The notes: generated by a model from the letters alone, not told the origin. Shown: positions 8,061 through 61,808, counted from the stretch's first letter. The stretch: 64,000 nt of DNA from an uncultured Candidatus Saccharibacteria bacterium (GCA_964399865.1 CAYNRJ010000001.1:2315-66314); one strand, 5' to 3'. A program made the numbers and translations.

Positions 8061-9401
8061 ATGGCATACCGAACAAACACTATAGCGATCGGTATTATGC
8101 TGGGACTATTTTTTCTGTTTTCTTCCGTTTCTCTTGCGGATGAATTTACTTCCGGTGATTATAAAATAGTCGATCCCGTCATCGTGCCGTCGGGATTCGC
8201 GACGTCTTCTAGCTTTCAGTTGTGGAGCACCATCTCTGAATTAGCAACAGGAACAAGCACGGCGACAACGTTTTCTCTAAGTTCCGGATTTCTTACATTC
8301 CCATTCGTCTCTACCCCGGTAGTTTCTGCAACTGCTGGTGACGCTCAAGTATCAATTTCGTGGAGCGCTTCGGAAGGATTCCTCGGATGGAGTATATCGG
8401 GGTATGACATCGCTCGGGCCACGGTTTCTGGCGGTCCATACACATACTCAGATGTTGGAAATGTTCTTAGTAGTACAAGAACCGGCCTCACTAATGGGAC
8501 CACGTACTATTTTGTTGTCGTTCCGAAGGATATATTTGGGAATAGAATCGCCACTTCGACAGAAGTATCCGCGACGCCGGTTGCATCAAGTGGGGGCGGA
8601 GGTGGTGGTGGAGGAGGTGGTGGCGGGGGCGGTGGAGGAGGCGGTGGAGCAGCAGCGCCGTCCGGTGCGAATGTATTCTTTTCAGGACGCGCGTATCCTG
8701 GAAGTACCGTAGTTCTCCTTAAGGACGCGCAGGTGGCCGCTACAACTGTTGCAGGAGCAGATGCGAAATTCCAAATCGCCCTCGGAGGGCTTTCAACCGG
8801 GAACTTTATATTCTCAATGTATGGTGAAGATAAAGCTGGCAATCGCTCCTCGCTCCTGTCGTTTCCGGTGAGCGTAACAGCCAATGTGTTTACGAATGTC
8901 GGTGGTATTTTCATTTCACCATCGATTACAACTGACAAGGCTGAGGTGAGAAAAGGAGACAATATAGCAATCTTCGGACAATCATCGCCAAAGTCAGACA
9001 TAGTCATCGCGGTGAACTCTGAAGAAGAATTATTCGCGCAGGTAAAGGCGGATGATAGTGGAGCGTATCTCCTAAATTTTGACACATCGGTTCTCGAGAT
9101 GGGAAGTCACACAGCAAAATCAAAGGCGGCATTGGCAGGGGAGATAAGTACATACAGCAAAGCTGCCGCGTTTACCGTAGGAACAAAAAATGTGGTTGCT
9201 CTCGTTACTACGAAGAAAGCCACAAAGGGTGACGCAAGTGGAGACGGAAAAGTGAACCTCGTAGATTTTTCAGTTGCTGCCTATTGGTATAAACGCCCGC
9301 TCACCCCAGCCTTTAGGGAAATCGAGAAGACGATGCTCAACGGCGACGGACAAGTAACACTCGCTGACTTCTCCATCATAGCCTATCACTGGGGAGGATG
9401 A
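8061..9401 (+). CDS. Secreted dockerin-containing protein: signal peptide, FN3 domain, 20-residue poly-Gly linker, two Ig-like / CarboxypepD_reg-like domains, C-terminal type I dockerin (two Ca-binding F-hand repeats).
   Basis: FN3 signature (QVSISWSAS…LTNGTTYYFVV). Dockerin repeats GDASGDGKVNLVDFSVAAYWY and LNGDGQVTLADFSIIAYHW at the C-terminus. Confidence 0.7.
   Translation: MAYRTNTIAIGIMLGLFFLFSSVSLADEFTSGDYKIVDPVIVPSGFATSSSFQLWSTISELATGTSTATTFSLSSGFLTFPFVSTPVVSATAGDAQVSISWSASEGFLGWSISGYDIARATVSGGPYTYSDVGNVLSSTRTGLTNGTTYYFVVVPKDIFGNRIATSTEVSATPVASSGGGGGGGGGGGGGGGGGGGAAAPSGANVFFSGRAYPGSTVVLLKDAQVAATTVAGADAKFQIALGGLSTGNFIFSMYGEDKAGNRSSLLSFPVSVTANVFTNVGGIFISPSITTDKAEVRKGDNIAIFGQSSPKSDIVIAVNSEEELFAQVKADDSGAYLLNFDTSVLEMGSHTAKSKAALAGEISTYSKAAAFTVGTKNVVALVTTKKATKGDASGDGKVNLVDFSVAAYWYKRPLTPAFREIEKTMLNGDGQVTLADFSIIAYHWGG
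8592..8651 (+). repeat. GGN trinucleotide tract encoding 20 consecutive glycines (low-complexity, slippage-prone coding repeat).
   Basis: ggg ggc gga ggt ggt ggt gga gga ggt ggt ggc ggg ggc ggt gga gga ggc ggt gga read directly; translates to G20 inside the dockerin-protein ORF. Confidence 0.9.
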
Positions 9402-26596: not shown

Positions 26597-26792
26597 GGGG
26601 AACGAAACTCTTTTTCGCCATATGTTCTCCGGAGCACGGATATTTTTCTGCTGAAAAATTCCTCGAGCTCGCGCCGCCGCGCTCGCTGGGCTCCGTCAAA
26701 CACATGCCGAAGCGAGTTTCTAAAGGGAGGAGCTGGGGGAAATACAAAACCGGCAGGGACCGGCACGCCTCGTTAAATGGTATGATTTTCAT

Positions 26793-41185: not shown

Positions 41186-41330
41186 GGGTAGCGACGCTCG
41201 CCGACACTGCACTCTTCGGGTCGCTATCTGACCGTGCTCTGTCAGCGCTCGGGCTTGACGCCGATGCGTCTGCGCAGACCCTCAGAGCGCACCGTCGACT
41301 CGCTTTGCATGGGATGGAATCTAGAGAAAT
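41186..41330. repeat. GC-rich multi-hairpin spacer between murF-like and ddl; it shares the 15-mer ctgcgcagaccctc(a/g) and other short motifs with the element after groEL.
   Basis: Hairpins gcgac…gtcgc, ctgac-cgtgctct-gtcag, gacgc-cgat-gcgtc, tgcgc-agaccctcaga-gcgca read directly. Confidence 0.4.
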
Positions 41331-42553: not shown

Positions 42554-43264
42554 ATGTCCGAAAAGAGAAAATTCGCGGTATTTGATGTCGACGGGACCAT
42601 TTTTCGATCAAGCCTATTAATCCAAGTTGTAGATAAGCTTATCGATACTGGGGCGTTCCCTCCTGAAGCTCAAAAAATGTATGAGCGAGAACATGAAAAA
42701 TGGCTTGATCGGGAAGGTGATTACGAAGAGTACGTAGATGGTGTGGTACGAACCTTTCGCCAGCATTTGAAGGGGATTCACTACAGTGTGCTCGCCGATA
42801 CTGCAGATGCCATGGTCGAGAGACAATGGAAAAGAACATACCGCTACACTCGCGACCTTTTAAAGAGTTTAAAAGAAAGGGGTTATTTTCTCCTTGCAGT
42901 CTCGCATTCCCCCAAAACTGTCCTCGATAAATTTTGCCCACGACTTGGATTCGATAAAGCCTACGGCATTGTGTATGAGATCGGGCCGCAGGAGTGCTTC
43001 ACAGGAGGGATCGTCGACGAACATCTCATTATGAACAAGGCGAATATCGTTCGTCGTGCCGTTGAAAAAGAGGGGCTCACGCTCTCCCATTCTATCGGAG
43101 TTGGAGATACGGAATCTGATGTTCCATTTCTAGAGCTAGTAGCAAAGCCACTTTGCTTTAACCCAAACAAAAAACTCTACCGTTATGCAAAACGCATGGG
43201 TTGGAAAGTGATAGTTGAACGGAAAGATGTCGTATACGAGCTTGGGAAGAGTGATTTGGTATAG
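42554..43264 (+). CDS. HAD-superfamily hydrolase (HAD-IB / phosphoserine-phosphatase-like).
   Basis: FAVFDVDGTIF motif I, GVGDTESD motif IV. Confidence 0.65.
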   Translation: MSEKRKFAVFDVDGTIFRSSLLIQVVDKLIDTGAFPPEAQKMYEREHEKWLDREGDYEEYVDGVVRTFRQHLKGIHYSVLADTADAMVERQWKRTYRYTRDLLKSLKERGYFLLAVSHSPKTVLDKFCPRLGFDKAYGIVYEIGPQECFTGGIVDEHLIMNKANIVRRAVEKEGLTLSHSIGVGDTESDVPFLELVAKPLCFNPNKKLYRYAKRMGWKVIVERKDVVYELGKSDLV

Positions 43265-43282
43265 GGGGGGGTGATGCTGACG

Positions 43283-43393
43283 TCGCGACAGCCAGTGCAT
43301 ATTTTGCCGTCGCTGTCTGTGCCTGCTGGCACAGCGCTGCCTCTCGGCTCGTCAGCCTGCGAGACACGGCAAAATACGCACCGGTTGCCACTC
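43283..43393. ncRNA. Copy A of a repeated GC-rich structured element (candidate structured RNA): a long closing helix around two internal hairpins. It is preceded by a G8 homopolymer directly after the stop codon.
   Basis: Core 43297-43379: gcatattttgccg | gtcgctgtctg tgcc-tgct-ggca cagcg | ctgcc tctcg ggct-cgtc-agcc tg cgaga | cac cggcaaaatacgc. Homologous to 51303-51383 with compensatory changes. Confidence 0.45.
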
Positions 43394-43458
43394 CTTACAA
43401 TGCAGGTTGGTGAGTTAAGAGATGGGGGCGAAGGACGGATTTGATATAATGGTGTTGT

Positions 43459-43692
43459 ATGAACAAAAAGCTATATCGAATACCACAAAAAGCCATGATC
43501 GCTGGCGTTATAGCCGGTTTTGCCGACTACTTTAAGGTTGATGTAACGATGTTGCGCATAGTCTTTGTCCTCTTCGTTCTGGCGACAGGTTTGTTTCCAG
43601 GGGTGATTGGTTACATAGTTGCCGTCCTCATTATGCCTATTGAATCGACTGTCATTCATGAGGTCAAAGACGAATTCTCACAGCAGGGATAG
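43459..43692 (+). CDS. PspC-domain membrane protein.
   Basis: KLYRIPQKAMIAGVIAGFADYFKVDVTMLRIVFVLFVL matches PspC domain consensus. Confidence 0.65.
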   Translation: MNKKLYRIPQKAMIAGVIAGFADYFKVDVTMLRIVFVLFVLATGLFPGVIGYIVAVLIMPIESTVIHEVKDEFSQQG

Positions 43693-49631: not shown

Positions 49632-51281
49632 ATGGCAAAACAAGTAATCTTTGATCAAGACGTACGAAATGCACTGAAGCGCGGCATAGATATCGTCGCA
49701 GGCGCAGTGCGCGTGACGATCGGCCCTCGCGGAAGGAATGTTGCGATAGGAAAGTCATGGGGCGGGCCCACGATCACCAATGATGGTGTTTCAATTGCAA
49801 AAGAAATCACGCTCGCGGACAAATTTGAAGACATGGGCGCTTCCATTGTCAAGGAAGTTGCAACAAAGACGAATGACAAAGCAGGAGACGGCACCACAAC
49901 AGCGGTCGTCCTCACTCAGGCGATCATTCACGAGGGTTTGAAGCGCACAGCACTCGGTGCGAACGCGATGATGGTGCGTCGTGGTATCGAAGCAGCAGCA
50001 AAGGACGCCGTTGAAGAGCTGAAGAAAATGGCGAAGCCGATAAAGACAAAGGAGGAAAAGCGTCAGATCGCTACAATTTCTGCGGAATCATCTGAGCTCG
50101 GCATCACTATCGCTGACATCGTAGACAAGGTCGGCAAGGACGGCGTGGTGACTGTCGAAGAATCGCAGTCCATCGGTATTGAATCTGACTACGTCGAAGG
50201 AATGGAGTTCGACAAGGGGTATGTGTCTGCATATCTCATCACGAACGCAGAGCGAATGGAGGCAGAAATGAAAGATGCACCGATCCTCATCACTGACAAG
50301 AAGATTTCTACGATTAAAGATATTCTTCCGCTCCTCGAGAAGGTCGCGCAGTCTGGAAAGAAGGATCTCTGCATCATCGCAGATGATGTTGATGGAGAAG
50401 CTCTTGCAACTCTCATCGTCAACAAACTTCGTGGTGTATTTAATGTGCTCGCGATCAAAGCGCCAGGATACGGCGACCGCAAGAAAGAGATGCTCGCGGA
50501 TATCGCAGTCACTGTTGGGGCATCGGTTGTGTCCGAAGACCTTGGTGTGAAGCTTGAGAATACAGAACTTGCAATGCTCGGGAAGGCAAGTCGTGTCGTT
50601 GCTACAAAGGATTCGACTATTATCGTCGGAGGTAAGGGAAAGAAAGGAGATATCGACAAGCGCGTATCGCAGCTTAAGAAGCAACTCGAAAATACGGACT
50701 CGAAATTCGACAAAGAAAAATTGGAGGAGCGAGTTGCGAAGCTCTCGGGTGGCGTTGCAGTCATTCGTGTAGGAGCTGCGACTGAGACAGAGATGAAATA
50801 TTTGAAAGACAAGATCGAGGACGCGGTCAATGCAACGAAAGCCGCAATTTCCGAGGGTATCGTCGCTGGAGGTGGAACTGCGCTCGCAAAAGTCGCTGAC
50901 AAACTATCAAAGAAAGTAGATCCAAATGCTCACGACGAGCACACGATAGGCTACCGGATACTTGTATCCGCGCTCACCGCGCCATTTCTCCAGATTGTAA
51001 AGAATTCCGGTCGTGAAGATGGCGCAGTGCTCCTTCGCGATGTTGTCGCAAAGGGCGGCGCATGGGGATTTGATGCAGCTGCAGAAAGTGTCGAAGGAAA
51101 GATCGTCGACATGTATGAAGCTGGCATCATCGATCCGGTGAAAGTAACTCGTAGTGGTGTTGAAAATGCAGCATCTGCCGCTGCAGTACTTCTCACTACA
51201 GAAGCTGCCATCGCAGATATTCCAGAAGAGAAGAAGGCTCCAGTAGGAGGTGGTATGGGGATGGGAGGGGACATGGAGTAG
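49632..51281 (+). CDS. groEL: Chaperonin GroEL.
   Basis: Canonical sequence throughout, C-terminal GGM repeat (GGGMGMGGDME). Confidence 0.97.
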   Translation: MAKQVIFDQDVRNALKRGIDIVAGAVRVTIGPRGRNVAIGKSWGGPTITNDGVSIAKEITLADKFEDMGASIVKEVATKTNDKAGDGTTTAVVLTQAIIHEGLKRTALGANAMMVRRGIEAAAKDAVEELKKMAKPIKTKEEKRQIATISAESSELGITIADIVDKVGKDGVVTVEESQSIGIESDYVEGMEFDKGYVSAYLITNAERMEAEMKDAPILITDKKISTIKDILPLLEKVAQSGKKDLCIIADDVDGEALATLIVNKLRGVFNVLAIKAPGYGDRKKEMLADIAVTVGASVVSEDLGVKLENTELAMLGKASRVVATKDSTIIVGGKGKKGDIDKRVSQLKKQLENTDSKFDKEKLEERVAKLSGGVAVIRVGAATETEMKYLKDKIEDAVNATKAAISEGIVAGGGTALAKVADKLSKKVDPNAHDEHTIGYRILVSALTAPFLQIVKNSGREDGAVLLRDVVAKGGAWGFDAAAESVEGKIVDMYEAGIIDPVKVTRSGVENAASAAAVLLTTEAAIADIPEEKKAPVGGGMGMGGDME

Positions 51282-51295
51282 AGGGCCACTCGGCT

Positions 51296-51392
51296 TGCGA
51301 TCAGCATTTCTGCGGTCGCTGTCTGCCGCTGGTGCGGCAGCGCTGCCTCTCGGCCCGCCGGCCTGCGAGACACCGCATAAACGCTGATCGCA
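51296..51392. ncRNA. Copy B of the repeated structured element, immediately 3' of groEL.
   Basis: Closing helix ttgcgatcagcatttctgcgg / ccgcataaacgctgatcgcaa; hairpin cgctg tctg ccgc-tggt-gcgg cagcg; hairpin tctcg ggcc-cgcc-ggcc tg cgaga. Confidence 0.45.
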
Positions 51393-51466
51393 ACCCTCGC
51401 TTTAGGTTGAAAAAATTACATCGTCGTGCCTGCGCAGACCCTCGAAAAACAATTACTCCCTCGCTA

Positions 51467-51515
51467 GAAGTTTTAAAAAGTTGAAGCTCCGGCCGCAGCG
51501 TGCGCCCGGAGCTTC
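51467..51515 (-). terminator. Terminator for the minus-strand gene 51534..51851 (10-bp stem gaagctccgg / ccggagcttc; U-run on the minus side).
   Basis: agttttaaaaagttgaagctccggccgcagcgtgcgcccggagcttc. Confidence 0.55.
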
Positions 51516-53814: not shown

Positions 53815-53899
53815 GGAGGGTTCGCATAGTGGTCTAGTGCACACGCTTGGAAAGCGTGCGTGCCGCAAGGCACCGAGAGTTCGAATCTCTCACCCTCCG
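53815..53899 (+). tRNA. tRNA-Ser (anticodon GGA), class II with a long variable arm; no encoded CCA; followed by a T8 run.
   Basis: GGAGGGT-TC-GCA-TAGTGGTCTAG-TGC-A-CACGC-TTGGAAA-GCGTG-CGTGCCGCAAGGCACC-GAGAG-TTCGAAT-CTCTC-ACCCTCC-G folded by hand. Confidence 0.85.
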
Positions 53900-61654: not shown

Positions 61655-61782
61655 CAGAAAATAGGCGACTGATACATTTTTTGTATGCAAAAGAATGTGC
61701 AGGTAATGATGATGGCGATGATGACCCTCAAAGCGGAGGCGTTTTGCCTGCATATCTAATCTCAAACAGACATTCAGACAAA

Positions 61783-61808
61783 AACCCTCCGCTCGGAGGG
61801 TTTTTTGT
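61783..61808 (+). terminator. Rho-independent terminator (aaaaccctcc-gctc-ggagggtttttt).
   Basis: Sequence read directly. Confidence 0.7.

Follow-up and report, generated by a model that had tools for sequence, protein, structure and literature searches.

The stretch of DNA analysed here, 64,000 nucleotides in its entirety and referred to below as the window, carries two GC-rich palindromic copies of one element at the positions given in a preliminary description: copy A, between a HAD-family gene and a PspC-domain gene, and copy B, downstream of groEL. A covariance model (R1), built from 108 members of the wider family, found two further, diverged copies (C and D) that were absent from that description, bringing the number in the 64 kb to four, all on the + strand. 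The features are given below in order of position.

26605..26719, + strand: copy D, diverged (36.9 bits, E=1.4e-07); AT-rich P2 subfamily, TGCT loop kept
41191..41308, + strand: copy C, diverged (48.3 bits, E=1.2e-10), sharing the GCTCG ... CTCGCT flanks
42554..43264, + strand: HAD-family hydrolase gene (Pfam PF12710/PF00702), with its TAG stop 19 nt before copy A
43283..43393, + strand: copy A, whole element (model match 43280-43396; R1 105.7 bits, E=3.9e-26), between the HAD-family and PspC-domain genes
43289..43309, + strand: copy A, 5' arm of helix P1 (inverted repeat I14, 22 nt, 86% complementary)
43310..43366, + strand: copy A, 57-nt conserved core TCGCTGTCTG...CTGCGAGACA (near-invariant columns in the 108-sequence alignment A2, where sampling by an exact core pattern exaggerates apparent core conservation)
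43312..43337, + strand: copy A, hairpin P2 (tip 43319-43323 paired with 43328-43332; loop TGCT, 43324-43327)
43341..43363, + strand: copy A, hairpin P3 (CTC-GGCT-CGTC-AGCC-TGC-GAG; 99% of cells paired)
43367..43387, + strand: copy A, 3' arm of P1 (from the inverted repeat and the fold)
43459..43692, + strand: PspC-domain gene, downstream of copy A (Pfam PF04024)
49632..51281, + strand: groEL, upstream of copy B (Pfam PF00118)
51286..51402, + strand: copy B, whole element (about 51290-51398; 102.9 bits, E=2.3e-25)
51292-51316 and 51372-51396, + strand: copy B, arms, with the core at 51316-51372 (inverted repeat I2/I5, 25 nt, 88% complementary)
51483..51515, no strand assigned: separate short GC-rich hairpin, not part of the element (inverted repeat I9, 15 nt, 93% complementary)

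Copies A and B have in common a 73-nt block (43302-43374 and 51308-51380, 81% identity) and a 57-nt core, and each forms a three-way junction with a long closing stem that is unlike between the two. The three conserved stretches singled out previously are identical in both copies, and the chance expectation of the 17-mer CAGCGCTGCCTCTCGGC in the window is 0.16. The inner 12 nt or so of the arms recur in copies A, B and C (GCAYnTTTYGSSG), while the outer arms are unrelated; in the 5' arm of copy A the inner part, GCATATTTTGCCG, is semi-conserved and the outer part locus-specific. The closest homologues of the window GroEL are labelled Kaiserbacteria/Patescibacteria (83-89% identity).

Each of the four copies begins 5-20 nt past the stop codon of a + strand housekeeping gene and lies in sense orientation: copy B starts 5 nt past the groEL stop, copy C 6 nt past that of a Mur-ligase gene (with ddl downstream) and copy D 9 nt past that of typA/bipA (with msrB downstream). 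The run of eight Gs reported directly after the stop codon upstream of copy A is present at 43264-43271, with the correction that its first G is the G of the HAD TAG stop; other intergenic copies, too, are often G-rich on their left side (TAGGG...). The placement of the copies speaks for a cis-acting structured RNA of the 3' UTR or intercistronic spacer, selected as a stabiliser of mRNA 3' ends, an RNase site or a terminator-like barrier, and stabilising, processing and terminator-like roles have been proposed for REP, ERIC and Correia elements. In REP-rich genomes most repeats are located 3' of coding regions, and a role as RNA is assumed for many of them (PMC3733652). At the window copies, however, neither a terminator nor a promoter consensus was found and no U-tract follows, and copy B is succeeded by the separate hairpin at 51483..51515, which stands before a convergent gene, is likely an ordinary terminator and has counterparts in relatives with and without the element. 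An intrinsic terminator was rejected as an explanation, since the hairpin lacks a U-tract at the window copies and copies also lie within essential ORFs.

Two other repeats were seen in the window. A 34-nt imperfect inverted repeat at 61724-61801 (79% complementary), overlapping a short GC hairpin and T run (ACCCTCCGCTCGGAGGGTTTTTT), looks like an ordinary terminator unrelated to the element; GGN-rich tandem repeats at 8592-8648 (GGTGGTGGAGGA...) are probably a glycine-rich coding stretch.

Fold and covariation of the element

One unit of about 115 nt consists of arms of 20-30 nt, pairing as P1, and of the 57-nt core with two hairpins, P2 (loop TGCT) and P3 (loop CGTC). P3 is the most conserved module across subfamilies: when the model was run over 98 loci, full-length AT-rich variants, down to 31% GC, displayed the same architecture, and P3 was kept in them as the best-preserved piece (CTCGGCTCGTCAGCCTGCG). 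The compensatory differences previously noted between copies A and B are all present, that is GTGCC/GGCAC against GCCGC/GCGGC, GGCT/AGCC against GGCC/GGCC, and the closing stems. Covariation was evaluated on a gap-free alignment (A2) of 108 family members with 500 shuffles. Paired cells amounted to 80.8%, compared with 62.6% in the shuffles, and the covariation score was 0.465 compared with 0.156; none of the 500 shuffles reached the observed score, which fell to 0.22 or less when partners were slid by 1-3 columns. All Watson-Crick types occur in the five pairs of the P2 tip, where 98% of cells are paired, and in the tip pairs of P3 (99%). The proposed covariation in three helices is real across the 108 members, further copies exist elsewhere, and the element is, as proposed, not a simple duplicated spacer.

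The two strands differ in their folding. On the + strand, copies A and B reach -51.7 and -59.0 kcal/mol (z-scores -3.5 and -5.0), and the high stability of these sense-strand hairpins, like the strong conservation of the junction nucleotides, favours a cis-acting RNA. The - strand does better by about 14-18 kcal/mol, at -70.2 and -72.6 kcal/mol (z-scores -8.2 and -7.1), because several A.C mismatches of the + strand turn into G.U on the other; this was overlooked in the preliminary description. In the window, the better-folding strand is antisense to the flanking genes, which counts against a cis-acting RNA, and across the family it is the reverse complement that has the better fold in 99 of 110 copies, regardless of which way the host gene runs. 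G.U makes up about 1% of cells in the covarying hairpins and is not commoner than other mismatches, and the arm mismatches on the pattern strand comprise 70 G.T, 146 A.C and 319 others. Hence, there is no sign of the wobble tolerance expected under selection on one RNA strand. A model in double-stranded DNA only does not account for the difference between the strands in folding and mismatches.

A reading of the element as a multi-copy family of small RNAs with transcription of their own, a protein binding to the junction and the variable stem carrying copy-specific information, could draw on the energies and z-scores of the - strand and on the preference for the reverse-complement strand. It could also draw on two loci in which P2 is expanded and branched by about 30 extra nt, as in RNA families, with P3 and the arms kept (L042:802-949 and L045:3300-3450). 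We consider this reading very improbable: no promoter-like sites adjoin the window copies, G.U pairs are rare, no Rfam family matches, and copies are embedded in ORFs, in a fixed frame and without stops, as described below. A different reading would make the element a host-beneficial DNA site for a Patescibacteria-specific machine, its junction kept by host-level selection; candidates are an invertible recombination site, a replication or DNA-uptake site folded as single-stranded DNA, and a nucleoid or segregation signal. Covariation by Watson-Crick pairs only fits a need for both strands or for double-stranded DNA to fold, and the strand asymmetry resembles single-strand substrates such as the bottom strands of attC sites.

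Searched against Rfam 15 at the gathering threshold, the whole window gave no family for the element, and around copy A a search at E up to 10 returned chance-level matches only, far below threshold. The question of a known Rfam family, raised in the preliminary description, is thus answered in the negative. The sole match in the window at the gathering threshold was an 85-nt tRNA at 53815-53899, the length of which suggests a long variable arm. A hammerhead-like reading of CUGACGAG on the reverse strand was discarded, the motif being missing in copies with GGCC/GGCC, the GAAA/stem arrangement being absent and Rfam giving no match.

Distribution of the family and copies inside genes

One genome per species was scanned for the exact pattern GCGCTGCCTCTC-N(8-16)-CTGCGAGAC, which occurred at 118 loci at least. 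Four of the 118 loci listed are chance matches in a dehydrogenase-like coding region of Chloroflexi and Alphaproteobacteria, so that true family matches number at least 114, in at least 76 assemblies. Among the matches listed, the organisms are labelled Nomurabacteria, Kaiserbacteria, Vogelbacteria, Paceibacterota, Minisyncoccia, Parcubacteria, Patescibacteria or Saccharibacteria, or are 'bacterium' metagenome-assembled genomes, and a single assembly has up to five copies or more. In several TPA_asm records labelled Saccharibacteria (L004, L028 and L099 among them), the TsaD and Tgt genes and their inserts resemble those of Nomurabacteria, and the label 'uncultured Candidatus Saccharibacteria' may be a generic placeholder there. 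The reach of the family beyond Paceibacteria/Parcubacteria is therefore uncertain, and we do not rely on the label.

Viral contigs contained no match to the core pattern and thus give no sign of a phage vector. A peptide search of a word-indexed protein database produced no candidates; the copy A peptide, a 33-residue query that lacks power, obtained just two matches among 1.84 billion representatives, both unrelated to the element. These two proteins (P0241 and P0242) consist of 9-10 identical tandem units and are probably assembly artefacts. No description was found in open-access full text on palindromic or in-frame elements in Patescibacteria or on the motifs of the element; as far as that literature shows, the element has not been described before, and an earlier description is possible.

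Of 117 matches among those listed, 55 are embedded in long ORFs, the ORF extending 150 nt or more to either side. These coding copies use a single fixed frame in each orientation: GSLS-x5-ALPLGSSACETP in 28 forward copies and GVSQADGPRGSA-x5-DSDP in 27 reverse copies. All three frames of the core are without stop codons, and the fixed frame therefore reflects selection or geometry. The hosts are unrelated protein genes of at least 11 families: Pfam identified Tgt, UvrD/PcrA, UvrB, the CCA-adding enzyme, class I aminoacyl-tRNA synthetases, Fmt, Def (peptide deformylase), an RluA-type pseudouridine synthase, KsgA and MnmA, and TsaD was identified separately. The insert divides the Pfam domain of the host in two stretches and adds 27-40 residues, of which GALPLGSSACETPR is an example; ORFs across the element are host genes reading through and nothing else.

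Orientation relative to transcription is even, with 28 forward and 27 reverse copies in coding sequence and 16 sense and 13 antisense copies between genes. The intergenic copies, therefore, follow stop codons in either orientation and about half of all copies lie, again in both orientations, in the ORFs of essential genes, where a terminator or cleavage site would be harmful. With these observations, and with G.U not favoured over other mismatches, we judge selection as a cis-acting RNA to be quite unlikely.

Orientation, insertion and movement

TsaD offers the fullest view of one coding site. Between its SKLA and LPRPM motifs the element is found in either orientation in 12 genomes, always as 41 residues. 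The pattern-left arm is always 1 nt longer than the right arm, so that turning the whole element round moves the core by one base and produces precisely the second frame seen. Among 120 TsaD homologues, 24 have the forward peptide and 23 the reverse one, 64 have other inserts of about 40 residues, four have inserts that are tandem doubles and five have 14-16 residues only. The 'other' inserts bear P2 and P3 signatures (IFQQEN, for instance, is ATTTTTCAGCAGGAAAAT) and are related subfamilies read in different frames; in two short forms, the DNA resembles what a deletion would leave behind and not a virgin site. The tandem double insertions (P0006, P0084, P0087 and P0091) are 75-81 residues long and combine mixed subfamilies or orientations at the same site, which suggests that new insertions are drawn to the site or to the element already there. 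One TsaD was modelled with AlphaFold2: mean pLDDT is 82 and falls below 50 in insert residues 194-223, a prediction that fits a tolerated surface loop.

On a UPGMA tree of 54 TsaD proteins, at least 20 changes of orientation are required, compared with a mean of 18.3 for shuffled labels, and the nearest neighbour is in the same orientation in only 24 of the 54; orientation at the TsaD site is random relative to TsaD phylogeny. An assembly artefact was rejected as the source of the mixed orientations, given that exact inverted stretches do not exceed about 12 nt and that the 1-nt arm bulge moves with the orientation of the core. The canonical core is nonetheless unchanged in approximately 40% of TsaD orthologues at 62-80% protein identity, where neighbouring synonymous sites differ. 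Such persistence is not predicted by the neutral decay of selfish DNA and points to selection or continual replacement, although choosing loci by an exact core pattern makes the core look better conserved than it is.

Both the persistent core and the rapid flipping of orientation would suit a host-beneficial site. Individual copies are dispensable, however: one genome has none at the groEL site (L124, below), and five TsaD orthologues carry inserts of 14-16 residues. Decayed copies exist too, among them the diverged window copies C and D. Point mutation can build an uptake sequence on the spot but not a 57-nt junction, no protein associated with the element was identified, and the combination of terminal inverted repeats with direct repeats points to transposition. 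A host-beneficial site, taken over all of its candidate forms, is in our estimation unlikely.

That combination is found in assembly MFVF01, where identical 29-nt arms (CTGTCCGGGGAAAATTCTCTTTTTGGGGG) occur at four unrelated loci with unrelated flanks (L038, L060, L110 and L080). Direct repeats of 3 bp flank L038 (CTA/CTA) and L110 (TAG/TAG), and none flank L080; they are clear for two copies only, older copies lack them, and an automatic boundary call scored a target-site duplication in 1 of 38 well-paired copies. The MFVF01 repeats might instead represent a duplication of TA, with an end base that can be assigned either way. Neither a transposase nor an autonomous parent came to light, and among the collected loci the 29-nt arm occurs solely as element termini.

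The site 3' of groEL is polymorphic. A relative with a GroEL of 89% identity (L126) has the element there, its contig breaking inside it, and a syntenic relative at 85% identity (L124) is without the element and has a short terminator only. In a third (L122:2860-2895), only the outer arms of copy B follow groEL, head to head (GGCCTGCGA joined to ATCGCAAGC), which would be the scar of a symmetric excision or else a palindromic target that was there beforehand. In a fourth (L125:2152-2290), flanks like those of copy B (GCTCG ... CCTCGCT) and palindromic arms enclose an unrelated interior of about 88 nt (-70 kcal/mol), possibly a different foldback family with the ends or the target in common. 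Contigs frequently break off within the element (L035, L039, L048 and L126), as is typical of repeats.

Conserved, non-palindromic flanks were observed at 22 intergenic loci and in the window at 51282-51420, with GCTCG on the left and CTCGCTnnAGnTGG on the right; in the window, a second CCTCGCT lies about 75 nt further right, at 51441-51447. TAG (or TAT) stands 0-10 nt to the left of GCTCG, at about eight loci within CATAG, the CAT being the start codon of a divergent gene. TAG was rejected as a general target-site duplication of this intergenic subfamily: a left TAG is almost always present and a right TAG within 25 nt in about 8 of 22, which is near chance. The flanks of L110 are also palindromic around the TAG direct repeat and, with the joined arms of L122, hint that arms are inverted duplications of host flanks or that the element inserts into the centres of existing palindromes. 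The identical full-length arms of MFVF01 and the remnant-like short TsaD forms argue that the arms travel with the element.

Relation to known mobile elements

This is a foldback element with multiple copies and insertion polymorphism, and terminal inverted repeats and short direct repeats mark its young copies. It persists in short spacers immediately behind stop codons or in frame in tolerant loops of essential proteins; both orientations occur at the same site and inversion is frequent. We conclude that it is probably a non-autonomous, palindromic mobile DNA of Patescibacteria, MITE-like in its anatomy and like the palindromic elements (RPEs) of Rickettsia in its behaviour, and not a dedicated functional RNA. 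The preliminary description had proposed a functional structured RNA or structure-selected element: a structure that is maintained and covaries is borne out, and a dedicated RNA is not favoured on account of the rare G.U pairs, the equal orientations, the in-frame copies in essential genes, the MFVF01 repeats and the presence/absence polymorphism. Textbook covariation in three helices is not, on its own, proof of a functional RNA.

RPEs are likewise palindromic repeats of about 100-150 bp that encode no transposase and occupy a reduced genome (PMC10969869, PMC3733652). They insert in frame in metabolic genes (PMC10969869), and REPs have been found inside repair genes, uvrA, uvrB and recB among them (PMC3733652). 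Like RPEs, the present element occurs both between genes and in frame in unrelated housekeeping genes, its peptide falling in a tolerated region, and in-frame insertion with a conserved peptide was found in 55 copies and two frames. It differs in belonging to another phylum, in being spread over many deeply diverged lineages as opposed to one genus, in taking both orientations at one site with one open frame each, and in having a conserved centre with variable arms. Because the phylum is another, membership in the described RPE families is unlikely, and the resemblance is one of behaviour.

With MITEs such as Correia/NEMIS, ERIC and RUP, the element shares small size, lack of coding capacity, multiple copies, terminal inverted repeats, polymorphic insertion among relatives and long hairpins when transcribed; the short direct repeats at two copies may correspond to the target-site duplications of MITEs. 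At about 115 nt without a transposase gene, it is well within the usual bound of about 300 bp; copies share terminal inverted repeats in MFVF01, and the inner 12 nt or so only in the window; and polymorphism is seen 3' of groEL and in TsaD with and without the insert. In an ordinary MITE, however, the terminal repeats are the conserved, transposase-binding part, whereas here the arms are conserved only in the recently amplified set and it is the central junction that is conserved across lineages. A central repeat is conserved in ERIC as well, but that element is restricted to enterobacteria and vibrios, and we know of no parent insertion sequence for the present element. It had been held against a structured element that it might prove to be a known REP or MITE with conserved, non-covarying inverted repeats. 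This does not literally apply, the family being undescribed and its arms covarying.

REP/BIME sequences mobilised by RAYT (IS200/IS605 type) are also hairpins recognised by structure, with stems that covary between families; most are found 3' of genes, and copies occasionally sit within repair genes (PMC3733652). A single-strand substrate of this kind would fit the strand asymmetry of the element. A REP, however, is one hairpin of 20-40 nt that carries a GTAG or CGTC tag at its end (PMC3733652), whereas the element is a three-way junction of about 115 nt in which CGTC is the P3 loop only and no end tag, and the MFVF01 direct repeats are not expected for IS200/IS605-type movement. Integron attC sites are imperfect palindromes of similar size that fold on one strand, keep structure over sequence and lie right after stop codons; the element differs in having no R and L boxes (GTTRRRY), no integrase and no cassette array, in its housekeeping neighbours, in its two orientations and in its copies inside ORFs. 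No GTTRRRY ends were found on reading the window sequences.

If the element is a mobile foldback DNA, the enzyme moving it would act in trans and recognise the core in its folded form and not the arm sequence, which would explain why junction nucleotides are conserved and arms need only to pair. Pairing may be kept at the level of DNA, by hairpin or cruciform formation and template switching during replication, and switching could yield the compensatory changes, the extension of arms and the inversion of the interior. Template switching makes and maintains hairpins and inverts loops, with multi-base compensatory changes and stem extension (PMC8794818). It would thereby account for covariation without wobble intermediates, for locus-specific outer arms and for flipping. 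The window copies are probably co-transcribed as passive 3'-UTR or intercistronic hairpins of the upstream genes, and any effect on mRNA stability would be secondary.

The pattern of conservation is the opposite of that of a normal MITE, with a core conserved across distant lineages and variable arms. Along with the persistence of the TsaD core and the strand asymmetry, it leaves room for a function at the level of the host or specific to a single strand. A bolder proposal, which we regard as doubtful when all its parts are taken together, is that the 57-nt junction is a functional module under purifying selection across Patescibacteria, bound as a folded single strand by a putative lineage-specific protein, and that flipping in tsaD, tgt and uvrD switches between two alternative surface loops, so providing reversible protein variation.

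Few known genomes are as small and streamlined as those of Patescibacteria (CPR), which are usually called repeat-poor, and the colonisation of housekeeping genes by in-frame palindromes has been regarded as largely a peculiarity of Rickettsia. What appears to be new is an element of the MITE- and RPE-like class with a structured, conserved centre and two-way in-frame use. If our interpretation is correct, it would explain part of the puzzling insertions in CPR proteins, as well as contig breaks in CPR metagenome-assembled genomes, and would provide a lineage marker and a model for annotating protein insertions in these bacteria. It would furthermore offer a natural system for the creation, maintenance and inversion of hairpin DNA, in which orientation flips faster than the host proteins diverge.
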